Shown here in pieces: positions 3,279 to 64,000 of a stretch of DNA of 64,000 nucleotides. Origin of the DNA: Escherichia phage APCEc01. A program made the position numbers and the translations under genes. Below the pieces are notes generated by a model, which was given only the letters and a program-made list of their open reading frames with translations, made no database searches and was not told where the DNA came from. Each line of letters begins with the position of its first letter. Position 1 is the first letter of the stretch. The stretch lies in sequence record NC_029091.1, one strand, 5' to 3'.

Positions 3279-4196
3279 ATGGATTTAGAAATGATGTTGG
3301 ATGAAGATTACAAAGAAGGTATTGCACTTGCCGACTTTAGTAACATTGCATTGGCAGCCGCATTAAACAACTTTGAAGACGGCGATAAAATTACTGTTCC
3401 GATGGTTCGCCATGTAATCTTGAATTCAATTCGTAAAAACGTAGTGATGTTCCGTAAGCAAGGCTATACAAAATTTGTATTGTGTATGGATAATGCTACT
3501 TCAGGTTATTGGCGTCGTGACTTTGCTTACTATTACAAGAAAAATCGTAAAACCGATCGTGAAGCTTCAAAGTGGGATTGGGAAGGATATTTTACTGCAC
3601 TCCATCAAGTTGTTGATGAGATTAAGAAATACATGCCATACGTTGTAATGGATATTGACAAGTATGAAGCGGATGACCATATCGGTGTATTAACTAAATA
3701 TTTGTCATTAGCCGGTCATAAGGTATGTATTGTTGCATCAGATGGTGACTTTACACAATTACACAAATATCCTAACGTTAAACAGTGGTCGCCACCACAG
3801 AAAAAATGGGTTAAAATTAAGAACGGTTCTGCTGAAATTGATTGCATGACTAAAATCCTTAAAGGTGACCGTAAGGATGGTGTTGCATCTGTTCGAGTTC
3901 GTGGTGACTTCTGGTTTACTCGAGTTGAAGGTGAACGAACTCCGAGCATGAAAACAACGATTATTGAAGCAATTGCCAATGACCGTTCTCAAGCTGAAGT
4001 ATTATTAAGTGCAGAAGAATATAAACGGTATCAAGAAAATTTGGTTCTCATTGATTTTGATTATATCCCTGATAATATTGCTTCAACCATTATAGAGTAT
4101 TATAACTCATATAAACCACAACCTAAAGGCAAGATTTATTCATACTTTGTAAAATCTGGTCTTTCTAAATTAACAAGTGTAATTAATGAATTCTGA
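3279..4196 (+). CDS. rnh: RNase H (5-prime to 3-prime exonuclease/flap endonuclease)
   Basis: 305 aa, same length and genomic position as T4 rnh; RBS agagg. Confidence 0.85.
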   Translation: MDLEMMLDEDYKEGIALADFSNIALAAALNNFEDGDKITVPMVRHVILNSIRKNVVMFRKQGYTKFVLCMDNATSGYWRRDFAYYYKKNRKTDREASKWDWEGYFTALHQVVDEIKKYMPYVVMDIDKYEADDHIGVLTKYLSLAGHKVCIVASDGDFTQLHKYPNVKQWSPPQKKWVKIKNGSAEIDCMTKILKGDRKDGVASVRVRGDFWFTRVEGERTPSMKTTIIEAIANDRSQAEVLLSAEEYKRYQENLVLIDFDYIPDNIASTIIEYYNSYKPQPKGKIYSYFVKSGLSKLTSVINEF

Positions 4197-4203
4197 GGTA
4201 AAC

Positions 4204-4473
4204 ATGGCTAAGAAAGAAGCAGTTGAATTTAATCAAGATGTGCATGGTGAAGAACTGGCTAAACTAGTCAAGGAAGCTTCCGATAACAAACTTAAAATTT
4301 CTGGTTATAATGAACTGATTAAAGACATTCGTACTCGTGCTAAAGAAGAGCTTGGTGTCGATGGAAAAATGTTTAATCGTTTGTTAGCTCTTTATCATAA
4401 AGACGCTCGTGATCAATTTGAAGCTGAAAACGAAGAGGTAGTCGAGCTTTATGACACAGTTTTCACTAAGTGA
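4204..4473 (+). CDS. dsbA: dsDNA-binding protein DsbA (late transcription enhancer)
   Basis: 89 aa from internal ATG with RBS gaggta; position between rnh and gene 33 as in T4. Confidence 0.7.
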   Translation: MAKKEAVEFNQDVHGEELAKLVKEASDNKLKISGYNELIKDIRTRAKEELGVDGKMFNRLLALYHKDARDQFEAENEEVVELYDTVFTK

Positions 4474-4789
4474 TATTAAACCGGTTGATGAGGCCGGTTT
4501 ATCTGAACAAGAATTAGCAGTAAAACACGATAAAGATGATATCGCTAAATTGCTTGACCGGCAAGAAAACGGATTCATTATCGAATCCATGGTTGAACAA
4601 TTTGGTATGTCTTATTTAGAAGCAACAACTGCTTTCTTGGAAGAAAATTCTATTCCAGAAACACAATTTGCTAAATTTATTCCTACAGGAATTGTTGAAA
4701 AAATTACAAGCGAAGCAATTGACGAAAACATGCTTCGCCCATCAGTTGCTCGTGGCGAAAAAACTAATACGTTAGATTTCTTATTATGA
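4451..4789 (+). CDS. 33: Late transcription accessory factor gp33
   Basis: 112 aa, MTQFSLSDIKPVDE... matches recalled T4 gp33; synteny. Confidence 0.85.
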   Translation: MTQFSLSDIKPVDEAGLSEQELAVKHDKDDIAKLLDRQENGFIIESMVEQFGMSYLEATTAFLEENSIPETQFAKFIPTGIVEKITSEAIDENMLRPSVARGEKTNTLDFLL

Positions 4790-5557: not shown

Positions 5558-6460
5558 ATGTTTAAACGTAAATCTACTGCTGACCTCGCTGCTCAAATGG
5601 CTAAACTGAATGGTAACAAAGGTTTCTCTTCAGAAGATAAAGGCGAATGGAAGCTGAAGCTAGATGCATCCGGTAATGGTCAAGCGGTAATTCGTTTCTT
5701 GCCAGCAAAAACTGATGATGCACTACCATTTGCAATTCTTGTTAACCACGGTTTCAAGAAAAATGGTAAATGGTATATTGAAAATTGCTCTTCTACACAT
5801 GGTGATTATGACTCTTGTCCTGTATGTCAGTACATTAGTAAAAATGACCTGTACAATACCAACAAAAATGAATATTCTCAACTGAAACGTAAAACTTCTT
5901 ATTGGGCTAATATTCTGGTTGTTAAAGACCCTCAAGCTCCAGATAACGAAGGTAAAGTATTTAAATATCGTTTCGGTAAAAAGATTTGGGACAAAATCAA
6001 TGCAATGATTGCTGTTGATACCGAAATGGGTGAAACTCCAGTTGATGTTACTTGTCCGTTTGAAGGTGCCAACTTCGTTCTGAAAGCTAAGCAGGTTTCC
6101 GGTTTTAGCAACTATGACGAATCTAAATTCTTGGGTCAATCTGAAATTCCTCGTATTAATGATGAAGCATTCCAGAAAGAACTATATGACCAGATGGTAG
6201 ACCTTACTACTTTGACGGCTAAAGACCAGTTCAAATCCTTTGAAAAATTAAATGAATCTTTCGCTAAGGTTCTTGGTACTGCCGCTCTTGGTGGTGCAGC
6301 AGCCGCAGCAGCTTCTGTTGCAGATAAAGTTGCTTCTGACCTTGACGATTTTGATAAAGACATGGAAGCCTTTAGTTCTGCAAAAACTGAAGATGACTTC
6401 ATGAGCTCTACCTCATCCTCTGATGATGGCGACCTCGATGACCTGTTAGCTGGTTTATAA
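5558..6460 (+). CDS. 32: Single-stranded DNA-binding protein gp32
   Basis: 300 aa; [36 protein letters not shown]... and acidic C-terminus match recalled T4 gp32. Confidence 0.95.
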
Positions 6461-6466
6461 TAAATT

Positions 6467-6488
6467 GGGAGACTTCGGTCTCCCTTTT
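6467..6488 (+). terminator. Rho-independent terminator after gene 32
   Basis: gggagac ttcg gtctccc followed by tttt. Confidence 0.8.
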
Positions 6489-21472: not shown

Positions 21473-21477
21473 TTTTA

Positions 21478-21499
21478 GGGAGACTTCGGTCTCCCTTTT
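21478..21499 (+). terminator. Rho-independent terminator
   Basis: gggagac ttcg gtctccc tttt, identical to the hairpin after gene 32. Confidence 0.8.
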
Positions 21500-21531
21500 G
21501 TGCGTTTAGGGCGGAAAAAGTTTAAAAAGAT

Positions 21532-21560
21532 GTTTACTCTCCTGTAGGATGTGTTACTAT
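21532..21560 (+). promoter_or_regulatory. Sigma70-type early promoter
   Basis: GTTTAC, 17 nt, TGtTACTAT. Confidence 0.6.
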
Positions 21561-21602
21561 AGACTTGTACCACCTAATCAATAAAACAACCTGGAGAACA
21601 AA

Positions 21603-42870: not shown

Positions 42871-42900
42871 AAAAAAGGGACCGTAAGGTCCCTTTGTTTT
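42871..42900. terminator. Bidirectional terminator between rnlB (+) and gene 24 (-)
   Basis: aaaaaa gggacc gtaa ggtccc tttgtttt; A tract and T tract flank the hairpin. Confidence 0.75.
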
Positions 42901-44182
42901 ATTCATCAATGATAATTTTTGGTAGCTTAACACCTAATAAAACAGACAAGTCTGAACGTCCTGCCATTTTATCCATGTCCCCGCCATCAATTATTCTCGC
43001 TTCTTTTTCGTCTTTTGCTACTGTGTAAGGATTTGCTGATAAAGCATATCTAACCAATAATCCGATAGACGGTTGCAAACTTTCCGGATCAACTACAACT
43101 TTAAATGCACCGACATGTTCCGGGTCATCTAAATCTACTCCTTCAGTGTATGGAGCATAAAAGATGGACCCTACAATTTCTTTTTCGCCGATATTTTCTA
43201 CAACACCCACAATAACATAATCTAACGGACTGTTGGTATCGCAGTAAAGAGGTAATCCATTTGCCAAGAATCCATAAGCATTTTGTGAAAGATACTTGTC
43301 ATCTTCTGGCTTATGTTTTAACCAACCAGAAGCAGCAAGAATAGCAGCTGCACGAGCTGAGGCTACACAAAACGTTGCAGTATAAGTTGTCTCTTTTTGA
43401 ATGTGTGATACCATTTCACACACCATTCGATATAATGAACGACCTGCTTCTGGAGCGGATGCATAGCTCAAGTCAATAAATCCGGTGTCAGTAATTCCAG
43501 TAACTTTATAACGTTTCGATACAGTAATTAAAGACTGAAGAATATCTTTATTAATTTCATCAGCCATTTCAGTAGCAAGCAAATCTTCTAAGAAGTTAGG
43601 GGCATCAAATCCATTCGCTTCCAAATCTTGCGCTAATTCAACCGTGAGGCCAGTTTTAAGTTTACGAGATTTGACTGAAGTTTGCCATTTATTAATCTGG
43701 AATCTTGCATCAGAAATTTCGCTACCAGAGCTTTCAAATTTGCTTGTTACCGCTGCATCTGAAAATAACCGTACCTTTAAATGAACGACTGCAATCTGAA
43801 GAGCTAATTCTAGATCACTTTCTTGAATATCTGCAAATGGTGTATCTTCTAACACTTTATAGACGATATTATTATATTTGAAAAAATCACCTTTATTTAG
43901 TGTGACTTTTGATTCTTCTGTGAGCTCAGTAATTTTTTCTCGGTCTACATATCCAACTTCGCCAGCATAAGTAGCACCGGTTTTAAATGTGAATTCGTTA
44001 TCTGGGTTAAGATATTTGATACCATAAAAAGCAGCAACAGGTTGATTAGTTCTTTGTGTTGCTACAATGTCAGAATATATTAATTTAGTCGTAGCGCGAG
44101 TCAAAGCAACGAGATTTGGGCGACCAATTGAGTTGCTAGTAGACGTTGTAGATTCACGCAATAATTTTTGGATTTTACTCAT
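42899..44182 (-). CDS. 24: Capsid vertex protein gp24
   Basis: 427 aa, same as T4 gp24; paralogous in length and position to gp23. Confidence 0.9.
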   Translation of the reverse strand: MSKIQKLLRESTTSTSNSIGRPNLVALTRATTKLIYSDIVATQRTNQPVAAFYGIKYLNPDNEFTFKTGATYAGEVGYVDREKITELTEESKVTLNKGDFFKYNNIVYKVLEDTPFADIQESDLELALQIAVVHLKVRLFSDAAVTSKFESSGSEISDARFQINKWQTSVKSRKLKTGLTVELAQDLEANGFDAPNFLEDLLATEMADEINKDILQSLITVSKRYKVTGITDTGFIDLSYASAPEAGRSLYRMVCEMVSHIQKETTYTATFCVASARAAAILAASGWLKHKPEDDKYLSQNAYGFLANGLPLYCDTNSPLDYVIVGVVENIGEKEIVGSIFYAPYTEGVDLDDPEHVGAFKVVVDPESLQPSIGLLVRYALSANPYTVAKDEKEARIIDGGDMDKMAGRSDLSVLLGVKLPKIIIDE

Positions 44183-44209: not shown

Positions 44210-44217
44210 TATTTATA
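44210..44217 (-). promoter_or_regulatory. T4-type late promoter for gene 24
   Basis: tatttata on plus = TATAAATA on minus, 28 nt upstream of gene 24 ATG. Confidence 0.65.
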
Positions 44218-44223
44218 AAGATT

Positions 44224-44253
44224 GTTTACAACGTATTTGGTATGTGATACTAT
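44224..44253 (+). promoter_or_regulatory. Sigma70-type early promoter
   Basis: GTTTAC, 18 nt, TGaTACTAT; conserved leader ...cagaggag... Confidence 0.6.
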
Positions 44254-44283
44254 AGACTTATCAACTACAGAGGAGTAAACAAA

Positions 44284-44553
44284 ATGACTAAAGCACGTTT
44301 CTTACGAGATACTTTAAAAGTTCTGGAAGCTGAAGCAGTTAAGTTAGTAGAAAAATATGGTGCAAAAGTTAATGGTAATGCCTTCAACAAAGTATGGATG
44401 AAAGTTGATTCTGAAGCTCGAGCTAAAGGTTATTGGGCCACTGATAAACTTGCATCATTCAAAAACAAAGACGGTTCTCCGGCATATGTCCAAGAAGGTA
44501 TGCCTAATTGGCAAAATATTTTGAAAACTTACATCGAAATTGCACAGAAATAA
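44284..44553 (+). CDS. Hypothetical early protein on opposite strand between capsid genes 24 and 23
   Basis: 89-aa ORF with RBS gaggag and own early promoter; no recognisable domain. Confidence 0.5.
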   Translation: MTKARFLRDTLKVLEAEAVKLVEKYGAKVNGNAFNKVWMKVDSEARAKGYWATDKLASFKNKDGSPAYVQEGMPNWQNILKTYIEIAQK

Positions 44554-44581
44554 AACCAAAAATGGGAGACCGAAGTCTCCC
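44554..44581 (-). terminator. Rho-independent terminator after gene 23 (minus-strand orientation)
   Basis: gggagac cgaa gtctccc, reverse complement of the gene 32 terminator hairpin; U tract on minus strand. Confidence 0.75.
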
Positions 44582-44605
44582 AAAATAAGATTTAATCAAT
44601 TAAGA

Positions 44606-46174
44606 TTAGATGCCTTTTACATATACACGGCGGAAGTAAGCGTTCTTACCAAGGCTGTTCAGGATAGATGGCATACCGGACTGGATGCGAGCACCTGGAG
44701 CCTGCAGGGAACTTTCAGCAAACGGGTTAACACCGATACCGTAACGAGTTTTAAAGCCCATTACCGGCTGGAAGTTCTTAGGATCGGAACCACGCAGCGG
44801 GGTAAGTGCAACGTAAGGAGCATAGTAAATACCTGCATCCATTTCGTTAGCGCCTTTGTAACCAACGGTGAAGTAATCCTGTTTAGCATACTGGTCGATG
44901 TATACGCGGTATTTACCACCAAGTACACCGGCAAATACAGACTTAGTAGTGTCGGTATTAAAACCAGAAGCCAGACCCTGTGCAGCGTAAGAAATACCAG
45001 TATCAACTGAAGCCAGTACGTTAACTACGTTACGGGAAGCGATAATGAAGTTACCTTCACCGCGACCGGTTTGACGAGCAATTTCAACTGCTTCTTTATC
45101 AATCTGGAACAACAGAGATTTAAAGCTTTCACCGGCCCAACGAGCACCACGGATATCAATCGGGTCCTGGAAGTCAAATACACCAGCTTTAGAACCCGGA
45201 GTCAGGGTCATACCAGATTTACCAACCTGTGCAGAGTAGTTAATCCAATCAACAACTTCACGGTTGATTTCTAGCATAATTTCTGTAGCCAGAATACCGC
45301 TCAATTCAGCATCAGCATCCATACCGTGTACTGCACGGAGGTCTTGTGCTAATTCGATAGAGTAAGCAGCTTTCAGCTGGCGAGATTTAGCTTCGATAAC
45401 TTGTTTATCGATACGGAAGCCCATTTCATTCCATGGGTTATCGGTAGAACCGTTGAAACCTTCCTGGAGTTCAGCGATAGAAGTAGCCATACCTTCAGCG
45501 ATTTCTACCAGTGCACCAGCTTCCATTTGTTTCTTAACTTCTGCATCTAATTTAGCTGCATCAGTTGCACCAGAATCAAGTGTTACGACAGCAGAAGCTT
45601 GCAGATATACAGTACCAGTTTCTTGGAAGAAGTGAGTATAGATATCACCTACAACAGTAGTAGTGCCAGCAGCCAGAGCTGGGAATTTCTTAGCAGCACC
45701 CTGACCAGAGAACATCGCATCTGGAGCATACATCGGATGGAAAGCTTCTTTAGCGCCAGCAGCGATAGGGTCTTTACCATATACTGCACGGAGAGCAAAT
45801 ACCTGACCGGTCGGGCTGTTCATAGGCTGAACACCACAAATATCAAAAGCGATCAGATTAGGAATAGCACGACGAACCATACCCATAACTGCCGGCCCAA
45901 TTTGGGTTACTGCACCAGAGGTTTGACCCGCTGCGATGTTCTGAGCATTATAACCATGGTCACCACCAATTTCAGCTTCGGTCAAGAAAGAACCAAATGC
46001 CTGAGCGATTTTCTCGTCTTTATATTCAGGGGATACTTCGAAATCTTTTTCCTGGTTTTCGAAGATTTTAGCGATAATAGCCTGCTTGCTGTTAGCGATT
46101 TCCGGCAGGCCTTCACCTTCCAGCAGTTCTTTCCATTTGTCTACGAGCTGAGCTTTAGTTTTGATAGTAGTCAT
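44606..46174 (-). CDS. 23: Major capsid protein gp23
   Basis: 522 aa; length, position and sequence consistent with T4 gp23. Confidence 0.95.
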   Translation of the reverse strand: MTTIKTKAQLVDKWKELLEGEGLPEIANSKQAIIAKIFENQEKDFEVSPEYKDEKIAQAFGSFLTEAEIGGDHGYNAQNIAAGQTSGAVTQIGPAVMGMVRRAIPNLIAFDICGVQPMNSPTGQVFALRAVYGKDPIAAGAKEAFHPMYAPDAMFSGQGAAKKFPALAAGTTTVVGDIYTHFFQETGTVYLQASAVVTLDSGATDAAKLDAEVKKQMEAGALVEIAEGMATSIAELQEGFNGSTDNPWNEMGFRIDKQVIEAKSRQLKAAYSIELAQDLRAVHGMDADAELSGILATEIMLEINREVVDWINYSAQVGKSGMTLTPGSKAGVFDFQDPIDIRGARWAGESFKSLLFQIDKEAVEIARQTGRGEGNFIIASRNVVNVLASVDTGISYAAQGLASGFNTDTTKSVFAGVLGGKYRVYIDQYAKQDYFTVGYKGANEMDAGIYYAPYVALTPLRGSDPKNFQPVMGFKTRYGIGVNPFAESSLQAPGARIQSGMPSILNSLGKNAYFRRVYVKGI

Positions 46175-63940: not shown

Positions 63941-63968
63941 ATACAAAAATGGGAGCCCGAAGGCTCCC
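63941..63968 (-). terminator. Rho-independent terminator (minus strand), presumably ending the upstream gene 8 transcript
   Basis: gggagcc cgaa ggctccc with U tract on minus strand. Confidence 0.7.
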
Positions 63969-64000
63969 TAATTAAAACATAAACAAAATGTTAATTTCTT

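Follow-up and report, generated by a model that had tools for sequence, protein, structure and literature searches.

A conserved opposite-strand ORF with an early-type promoter between capsid genes 24 and 23 of RB69-like phages

Organization of the gap between genes 24 and 23

The window (the whole 64,000-nt stretch of DNA analysed) is from a Mosigvirus, that is, an RB69-like T-even coliphage, and the 491 bases around the feature described here are 100% identical to those of Escherichia phage vB_EcoM_G53 and several other Mosigvirus genomes. A nucleotide search with these 491 bases as the query matched 152 phage records, 119 of which cover at least 80% of it. The head genes in the window lie on the − strand, with gene 24 (capsid vertex protein; 42899–44182, a 427-aa ORF 100% identical to the PhAPEC2 head vertex protein) as the left flank of the gap, gene 23 (major capsid protein; 44606–46174, a 522-aa ORF annotated in PhAPEC2) as its right flank, and then genes 22, 21 and 68; rnlB, 24.2, 24.3 and hoc are on the + strand. 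Between the two capsid genes, and on the strand opposite to both, is an ATG-initiated ORF of 89 codons (44284–44553, +), as the preliminary description of this DNA had reported, which belongs to the RB69ORF188c/JS98 orf173/VR7ORF190c family (PHROG 6003).

Upstream of the ORF and on the same strand we identified a putative T4-type early (sigma-70) promoter at 44224–44253, with GTTTAC(A) at 44224–44230, a 17-bp spacer, TG at 44245–44246 and TACTAT at 44248–44253, which a consensus scan reads as TTTACA-17 bp-TACTAT with an extended −10. It has the hallmarks of T4-type early promoters: GTTTAC at about −36 to −31, a −10 hexamer whose second base is A and whose sixth is T, a 17-bp spacing from TTTACA and the extended −10 TG, to which are added the two features taken from PMC1524935, namely an A-rich UP-like element at about −40 to −44 (TATTTATAAAGAT) and a location 5′ of a correctly oriented ORF. 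From this arrangement we infer that transcription of the ORF would start near 44260, within a short leader (44254–44283, +) whose Shine-Dalgarno site, GAGGAG at 44270–44275, is 8 nt 5′ of the ATG, with both the site and the ATG 17–31 nt 3′ of the −10 hexamer. A search of the 64-kb window for GTTTAC-N15-TGnTAYnAT returned six exact matches, all on the + strand and each followed ~20–45 nt downstream by a Shine-Dalgarno site and ATG, and several of them share the leader motif TATAGACTTATCAAC..GAGGA (TATAGAC.TATCAAC…GAGGA). With one mismatch allowed there were seven matches, compared to 0.38 expected from shuffled sequences, none of which reached seven; a generic sigma-70 scan, by contrast in pattern, showed no enrichment around the feature (7 sites vs 9.4 expected). 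Moreover, GTTTAC, the TG-extended −10 and the leader are kept in JS98, 04086 and LF82-31, and VR7 has GTTTAC with CATAAT, so that the promoter is conserved across genera though the encoded proteins are only 30–38% identical. The T4-type early promoter (GTTTAC...TGaTACTAT) and conserved early leader proposed in the preliminary description are thus borne out by enrichment of the pattern in the window and by its conservation. In RB69, Nolan et al. (2006; PMC1524935, Additional file 3) had predicted by HMM an early promoter (Pe:109605, score 29.9) on the strand of ORF188c/189c.

The early promoter stands back to back with the late promoter of gene 24 (44210–44217, −), read from the sequence as TATTTATA on the + strand, equivalent to TATAAATA on the − strand, on which the preliminary description was silent. 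This late promoter is at the correct distance for gene 24, does not vary among the aligned phages, even those with nothing else inserted in the gap, and corresponds to the late promoter predicted for gene 24 in RB69 (Pl:109573; Nolan et al., 2006). The same element doubles as the A/T-rich upstream element of the early −35, and it is because this A/T-rich block is the gene 24 late promoter that it is invariant across genera.

At its other end the ORF abuts the intrinsic terminator of gene 23 (44553–44582, −), which comprises a stem-loop (44563–44582) and a U-tract (44553–44562) that overlaps the ORF stop codon. The hairpin, TGGGAGAC-CGAA-GTCTCCCA, has an 8-bp stem with five GC pairs and starts 9 nt past the stop codon. 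In agreement with the orientation first assigned to it, it scored as an intrinsic terminator on the − strand only, where the loop is UUCG and is followed by TTTTTGGTTT, and its fold energy is −16.8 kcal/mol on this strand vs −13.5 kcal/mol on the + strand. No U-tract follows the hairpin on the + strand, where the tail is AAAAUAAGAUUU/AAAAUAAG, and the terminator scan made no call on that strand. A terminator at 109234–109251 of RB69 was predicted with TransTerm by Nolan et al. (2006; PMC1524935) under the label '23-><-RB69ORF188c'. Since the hairpin lacks a U-tract in the direction of the ORF, some early transcripts probably run through it and antisense into gene 23, which makes the read-through put forward in the preliminary description plausible. 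We inspected the base composition of the gene 23 antisense strand and found no obvious C-rich, G-poor tract of the Rho-site kind, from which we draw no conclusion. The terminator hairpin recurs elsewhere and accounts for a second 'place' in many BLAST records, which is not another copy of the gene.

Read in this way from the DNA, the ORF with its promoter and ribosome-binding site, and with no neighbours on its transcript, is a self-contained, monocistronic early-type unit in the 23/24 gap. Its components were already known, as the family is annotated and the promoter and terminator were predicted in RB69 in 2006; for this group of phages the feature is ordinary, one more annotated 'hypothetical protein' of RB69-like phages.

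Conservation and predicted fold of the 89-aa protein

Searches with tblastn found a full-length copy of the ORF in 236 of 238 matching phage records, which divide into 119 with at least 80% identity (Mosigvirus type) and 119 with less than 60%. The exact 89-aa protein is recorded on 262 contigs, always as 'hypothetical protein', and an identical copy is encoded by AV110 (WPK33856.1). Its profile match to PHROG 6003 (unknown function) extends over residues 1–89 against positions 1–90 of 90 (E 2.1e-45), and the annotation of PhAPEC2_170 notes a likeness to RB69ORF188c, of which no mention was found in papers in our literature search. In Dhakavirus JS98 (orf173), Gaprivervirus VR7 (VR7ORF190c) and phage 04086 the 24/23 slot holds divergent homologues (30–38% identity), likewise on the opposite strand, and relatives with 61% and 34% identity are found there in two metagenomic T-even contigs. 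Altogether, an opposite-strand location in the 24/23 gap is shared by PhAPEC2, RB69, JS98, VR7, 04086, LF82-31, AV110 and the two metagenomic contigs. RB69ORF188c/189c, JS98 orf173 and VR7ORF190c thereby match the window in family, 24/23 slot, strand, early promoter and terminator, but the RB69 reference copy differs in being split in two by +1 and −1 indels, and the Dhakavirus and Gaprivervirus alleles differ in that they are only 30–38% identical to the window protein.

The one exception to this conserved position is Acinetobacter phage ABPH49, of the Vequintavirinae, which has a protein 61% identical to an 87-aa relative in the family. The ABPH49 homologue has small ORFs of the same strand for neighbours and is remote from any T4-type capsid genes, and its presence in an unrelated phage indicates that the family has passed from one phage group to another, unrelated one, as is usual for accessory genes.

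Selection on the coding sequence was assessed with Nei-Gojobori dN/dS, which was 0.13–0.14 for pairs with unsaturated dS (JS98 vs 04086 and JS98 vs LF82-31) and 0.16 for the window ORF vs its 61%-identical metagenomic relative. The GC content of the ORF (35.6%) and its GC3 (24%) match those of neighbouring phage genes. Twelve residues are invariant among 14 family sequences: M1, K3, F6, L21, N30, G31, N32, A33, N35, A45, W51 and Q70. The preliminary description had considered that the ORF might prove to be restricted to this phage and to have random codon usage; what we found instead was broad conservation, a GC3 like that of its neighbours and dN/dS values of 0.13–0.16. By these sequence measures, the 89-aa ORF is a real gene under purifying selection.

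Broken copies do occur. The RB69 reference record has two ORFs in place of the gene, ORF189c (29 aa) and ORF188c (41 aa), owing to a +1 insertion inside a cluster of substitutions, after which translation ends at 29 residues, and to a −1 deletion further on; in phage mogra a 1-bp deletion in an A-run splits the ORF, and a few records have short ORF fragments of 51–64 aa. If the RB69 and mogra copies are real lesions, they would indicate that the ORF is dispensable. They could also be sequencing errors, given that the change in mogra is a single base in an A-run and that the RB69 sequence dates from 2003.

The predicted soluble protein (10.1 kDa, pI 9.6, net charge +6, GRAVY −0.56) has no Cys or His, and its N-terminus is an amphipathic helix and not a hydrophobic signal sequence. 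Basic character is kept in all homologues examined, with net charges of +3 to +6. AlphaFold2, run with the 14-sequence alignment, yielded a model with mean pLDDT 89 and pTM 0.76 that consists of a helix at 3–25, a second helix at 31–48, a beta hairpin (56–60/66–70) and a third helix at 76–88. In this model the invariant NGNA-x-N motif lies at the turn between helices 1 and 2, K62 in the hairpin turn and Q70 at the end of the hairpin.

The description of the protein as one without a recognisable motif stood up to profile and structure searches, with Pfam, an exhaustive profile search, BFVD and Foldseek against PDB all giving no motif or fold match. The only Pfam match was to DUF4859, which we rejected as it was below the cut-off (E 0.0029) and recurred in just 2 of the 14 family members; a GIY-YIG match was absent from the Pfam results. 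NCBIfam gave nothing meaningful and PADLOC zero matches for the protein. The best hit of the family profile in a PDB sequence search, at E 0.026, was not significant; the best Foldseek E value against PDB was 0.49, and the BFVD structure search returned only a member of the protein's own family. Prompted by the basic pI and the helix-helix-hairpin layout, we considered winged-helix nucleic-acid-binding domains, and these (DnaD-N, ORC2, Cdt1, MarR-like) do recur in the top Foldseek matches, with probabilities of at most 0.2 and TM-scores of at most 0.3. The exhaustive profile search of 1.84 billion representative proteins gave nine matches, six of them within the family and including two new short relatives (87 and 84 aa) and one truncated 64-aa copy. 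The other three were discarded. Those of 1347 and 3916 aa are Big_2/filamin-type beta-sandwich repeat proteins whose scores are sums over 9–11 weak repeats and are spurious; the third, the 160-aa P0020, has ~125 unrelated residues followed by a terminal 33-aa near-exact match to the Dhakavirus allele and is a probable assembly chimera.

Occupancy of the 23/24 slot in T4-like phages

Our survey of the 23/24 gap covered phages picked from the ranking of a tblastn search with gene 24. The slot is empty, at about 80–95 bp with nothing besides the terminator and the late promoter of gene 24, in Tequatrovirus RB32, Karamvirus EnA02, Jiaodavirus KP179, Acinetobacter phage Acj61 and RB43, and no early promoter was found in the two empty slots where the sequence was read (RB32 and EnA02). 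The 89-aa ORF is the sole occupant in the window, PhAPEC2, AV110, JS98 and VR7. In Mosigvirus LF82-31 and Dhakavirus 04086 it is followed 3–4 nt later by a GIY-YIG endonuclease gene (unannotated in 04086). A SegD-type GIY-YIG endonuclease with an early-type promoter is alone in the slot, on the opposite strand, in T4 and Gelderlandvirus CGG4-1, Tegunavirus phiR1-RT has a 504-aa homing endonuclease, and Krischvirus GoldenSnicker has three small ORFs that share the strand of the capsid genes. The early promoter, of which T4 and CGG4-1 have a degenerate form and which is absent from the empty slot of RB32, was seen in the 23/24 slot only with opposite-strand cargo.

The preliminary description had pointed to segD as the occupant of this slot in T4, and T4 does carry it there on the opposite strand. 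It had gone on to propose a hot spot for cargo insertion, which holds in so far as the slot exists in at least six states among T4-like phages, but not for the ORF itself, which is no recent insertion. Judged by its distribution, the ORF has long resided in the slot and has been inherited there in Mosigvirus, Dhakavirus, Gaprivervirus and metagenomic relatives at 30–70% identity. On the same comparison, the homing endonuclease is, within the Mosigvirus/Dhakavirus/Gaprivervirus group, an invader that settled beside the ORF, downstream of it, and did not replace it. LF82-31 is instructive here. Its gene 24 is 98.4% identical to that of the window and its promoter is identical up to GAGGAG. Beyond that point come an ORF allele of the Dhakavirus type, whose product is 32% identical to the window protein, and the endonuclease gene, which places the breakpoint at the ribosome-binding site. 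Such a switch resembles the outcome of co-conversion driven by an endonuclease, by which a divergent ORF allele appears to have been dragged across genera. The 23/24 gap, a plastic intergenic slot of a kind already known, shows on a small scale how cargo can vary in nature at one site, and in it the early promoter travels with opposite-strand cargo.

The T4 segD locus resembles that of the window in slot, strand and flanking signals, namely the late promoter of gene 24 and the UUCG terminator of gene 23. Upstream of segD, as far from this late promoter as the early promoter is in the window, is a promoter-like ATTTAC-N15-TGATATTAT (TGaTATTAT; sequence ATTTACAAGACCAAAGTAATATGATATTAT), alike in architecture to the window promoter and differing from it by G to A in the −35 element and by TATTAT as the −10. 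The cargo is different, a 223-aa nuclease vs an 89-aa protein, with no profile similarity between them: hhalign of the ORF family profile gave a probability of 1.2% against T4 SegD and 0.3% against the LF82-31 endonuclease. [quoted passage not shown] The promoter-like sequence suggests that segD has a degenerate early promoter of its own, and this candidate would reconcile early segD RNA with the failure of the review to find one. The early timing of segD RNA is in turn indirect evidence that the promoter at the homologous position in the window acts early.

Proposed early accessory role and alternative explanations

Taken as a whole, the ORF is likely an early monocistronic accessory gene for a small binding protein that acts early and has no role in capsid assembly. 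Host sigma-70 RNA polymerase would start at the 44224–44253 promoter in the first minutes of infection and produce a transcript whose leader, about 23 nt long, is accompanied by a strong Shine-Dalgarno site, and from this transcript an 89-aa basic cytoplasmic protein would be translated. The protein may be a small stoichiometric binder of a host component, a defence component or nucleic acid, for which the invariant polar N30-G31-N32-A33, N35, W51, K62 and Q70 are candidate contact residues, supposing that they form a single surface. It would tune host takeover or host range, taking no part in capsid assembly, and as an accessory gene it would be unneeded for plaque growth on laboratory hosts. 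The hairpin that follows the ORF would terminate the late transcripts of gene 23, arriving from the other direction, and early antisense RNA would continue until stopped by Rho or RNA decay. Such antisense read-through is most likely a by-product and not the purpose of the unit, because the empty slots that were read (RB32 and EnA02) lack the promoter altogether.

The promoter of the unit is better conserved than the coding sequence, and the same promoter position serves the unrelated SegD-type endonucleases of T4 and Gelderlandvirus. With a hairpin that is no terminator in the ORF direction, these observations would also fit a unit whose function is the promoter and an early antisense RNA into gene 23 that keeps the capsid genes off early, the ORF being incidental cargo and late gene 23 read-through being antisense to it. 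Early 'anti-late' RNA is a classical observation in T4; our literature search found no paper on T4 'anti-late RNA'. We consider this explanation unlikely. RB32, Karamvirus EnA02, Jiaodavirus, Acj61 and RB43 have empty slots, without the early promoter where the sequence was read (RB32 and EnA02), next to the same capsid genes, and antisense control is therefore not needed; the promoter owes much of its conservation to the sequence that it shares with the late promoter of gene 24; and purifying selection on the ORF is clear, its length, start, ribosome-binding site and invariant residues are maintained, and its predicted fold is confident. Purifying selection bears equally on the notion that the ORF is a decaying or functionless leftover, kept by its location between two essential, highly conserved genes. 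The broken copies in the RB69 reference (29 aa) and mogra (1-bp deletion), the 51–64 aa fragments and the lack of any database match outside its own family would accord with decay, and that empty-slot phages do well without gene or promoter counts against the accessory-gene reading that we prefer. Nonetheless, a gene that is intact in 236 of 238 records with dN/dS of 0.13–0.16, that retains twelve invariant residues across lineages only about 30% identical as well as a conserved promoter and ribosome-binding site of its own, and that was retained after transfer to an unrelated phage subfamily makes a leftover distinctly improbable.

The GIY-YIG gene 3–4 nt after the ORF and in the same operon in LF82-31 and 04086, and the arrival in LF82-31 of the Dhakavirus-type allele with the endonuclease gene, displacing the Mosigvirus allele, could suggest that the ORF is part of, a helper for or a remnant of a mobile homing-endonuclease cassette, for example a regulator or partner of a SegD-like nuclease. 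This is very unlikely in view of the separate occurrence of the two genes, as most carriers of the ORF (window, PhAPEC2, JS98, VR7) have no endonuclease and T4, CGG4-1 and phiR1-RT have an endonuclease without the ORF; in addition, no endonuclease is annotated in the 3.5 kb to each side of the ABPH49 homologue, and the profile probabilities given above (1.2% for T4 SegD and 0.3% for the LF82-31 endonuclease) argue against kinship. We give hardly any credence to a small capsid-associated or internal virion protein, to which the position between genes 23 and 24 and a weak PHROG match to an 'internal virion protein' family might point: the match, at E 0.09, is not significant, the ORF is on the opposite strand under a sigma-70 early promoter with no late TATAAATA promoter of its own, and the Vequintavirinae homologue is found among small early-type genes and not head genes.

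As regards what an early accessory protein of this kind might do, the binder, takeover or anti-defence mechanism is an argument from class, because no sequence or structure match gives a functional hint. T4 Alc, Ndd, AsiA and Arn are small early accessory proteins that bind host targets. The 89-aa protein has no sequence or structural similarity to any of the small early T-even proteins; its likeness to Emp/Gp94 of Mosigvirus AV110 is in size class, predicted early sigma-70 T4-type expression, dispensability and an often orphan fold. By this analogy the role in host takeover or anti-defence suggested in the preliminary description is plausible. More tentatively, and with some doubt, the family could be a new one of early effectors with an orphan fold, which would act in counter-defence or takeover via NGNA-x-N, W, K and Q and whose alleles, carried in a slot prone to recombination, would be swapped between T-even genera by endonuclease-driven co-conversion.

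A published screen in AV110 covered 45 early Mosigvirus proteins, chosen by homology to T4 early proteins, and missed the ORF because it has no T4 homologue. As a conserved early-promoter orphan gene that T4-homology screens pass over, it is a reasonable candidate for host-range and anti-defence testing in therapeutic Mosigvirus phages; the AV110 protein Emp, with which it is compared above, binds MreB, MreC and MreD.

A mosaic locus and homing endonuclease neighbours

In Mosigvirus LF82-31, the locus (L013, 471-1503) is a mosaic, with gene 24 and the early promoter being of the type found in the window up to the GAGGAG ribosome-binding site, and followed from there by a Dhakavirus-type allele of the small ORF, whose product is ~32% identical to the 89-aa window protein, and then by a gene for a 219-aa GIY-YIG endonuclease. 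This pattern looks like co-conversion during homing. We could also identify an unannotated 223-aa GIY-YIG homing endonuclease ORF 3' of the small ORF in phage 04086 (L004, 2771-3442), where the major head protein is annotated short (3502-4611), its ORF extending to 5061. In phiR1-RT (L019, 1-1418) the slot is occupied by an oppositely oriented gene for a homing endonuclease of 504 aa, and in Krischvirus GoldenSnicker (L021, 818-1399) by three small ORFs on the capsid-gene strand. Gene 24 itself occurs as two tandem copies in Gaprivervirus VR7, Dhakavirus JS98, Gelderlandvirus CGG4-1 and the related metagenomic contigs L009 and L011 (loci L002, L003, L009, L011 and L016), and as a single copy in the window, T4 and Dhakavirus 04086.

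Spread, integrity and naming of the 89-aa family

A homologue of the 89-aa protein is encoded in Acinetobacter phage ABPH49, an rV5-like member of Vequintavirinae (L006, 3495-3761), where it lies among small hypothetical genes on the same strand and outside any T4-type head module, a placement that we take as evidence that the family has spread by horizontal transfer. Two copies of the ORF are broken. That of the RB69 reference (NC_004928; L008, 6290-6532), annotated as the two ORFs 189c and 188c, ends after 29 aa because of a +1 insertion within a substitution cluster, which is followed at some distance by a -1 deletion. That of mogra (L007, 401-669) lacks 1 bp of an A-run. Both are null alleles of natural origin or else the product of sequencing errors. 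Among P0006, P0020 and H65 (the last being PQ341120), some of the source names given to family members look wrong, namely 'NADPH-dependent curcumin reductase CurA' (from JGI) and, for phage EAWsc9, 'glycosyl hydrolase family 25'. P0020 is apparently a chimera produced during assembly, whose terminal part is a fragment of the Dhakavirus allele.

Promoters and terminator hairpins

Upstream of segD, which occupies the slot in T4, we found ATTTAC-N15-TGATATTAT (L005, ~6234-6290) at the position that corresponds by homology to the early promoter of Mosigvirus. According to a review from 2010 (PMC2988022), no promoter could be recognised for segD, while segD RNA is classed as early in 2022 omics data (PMC9697503).

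The terminator stem-loop GGGAGACCGAAGTCTCCC recurs in the window at 6465-6488, 21474-21508, 44563-44582 (the gene 23 hairpin) and, as a variant, 63944-63986, and this repetition accounts for the 'second place' in many BLAST records. Directly after one copy lies an early-type promoter (GTTTACT…TGTTACTATAGACTT; 21521-21566). Whereas the gene 23 hairpin is one-directional, the hairpin between rnlB and gene 24 (AAAGGGACC-loop-GGTCCCTTT; 42874-42895) scores as a bidirectional terminator, and its RB69 counterpart was likewise predicted to act on both strands (Nolan 2006, PMC1524935).
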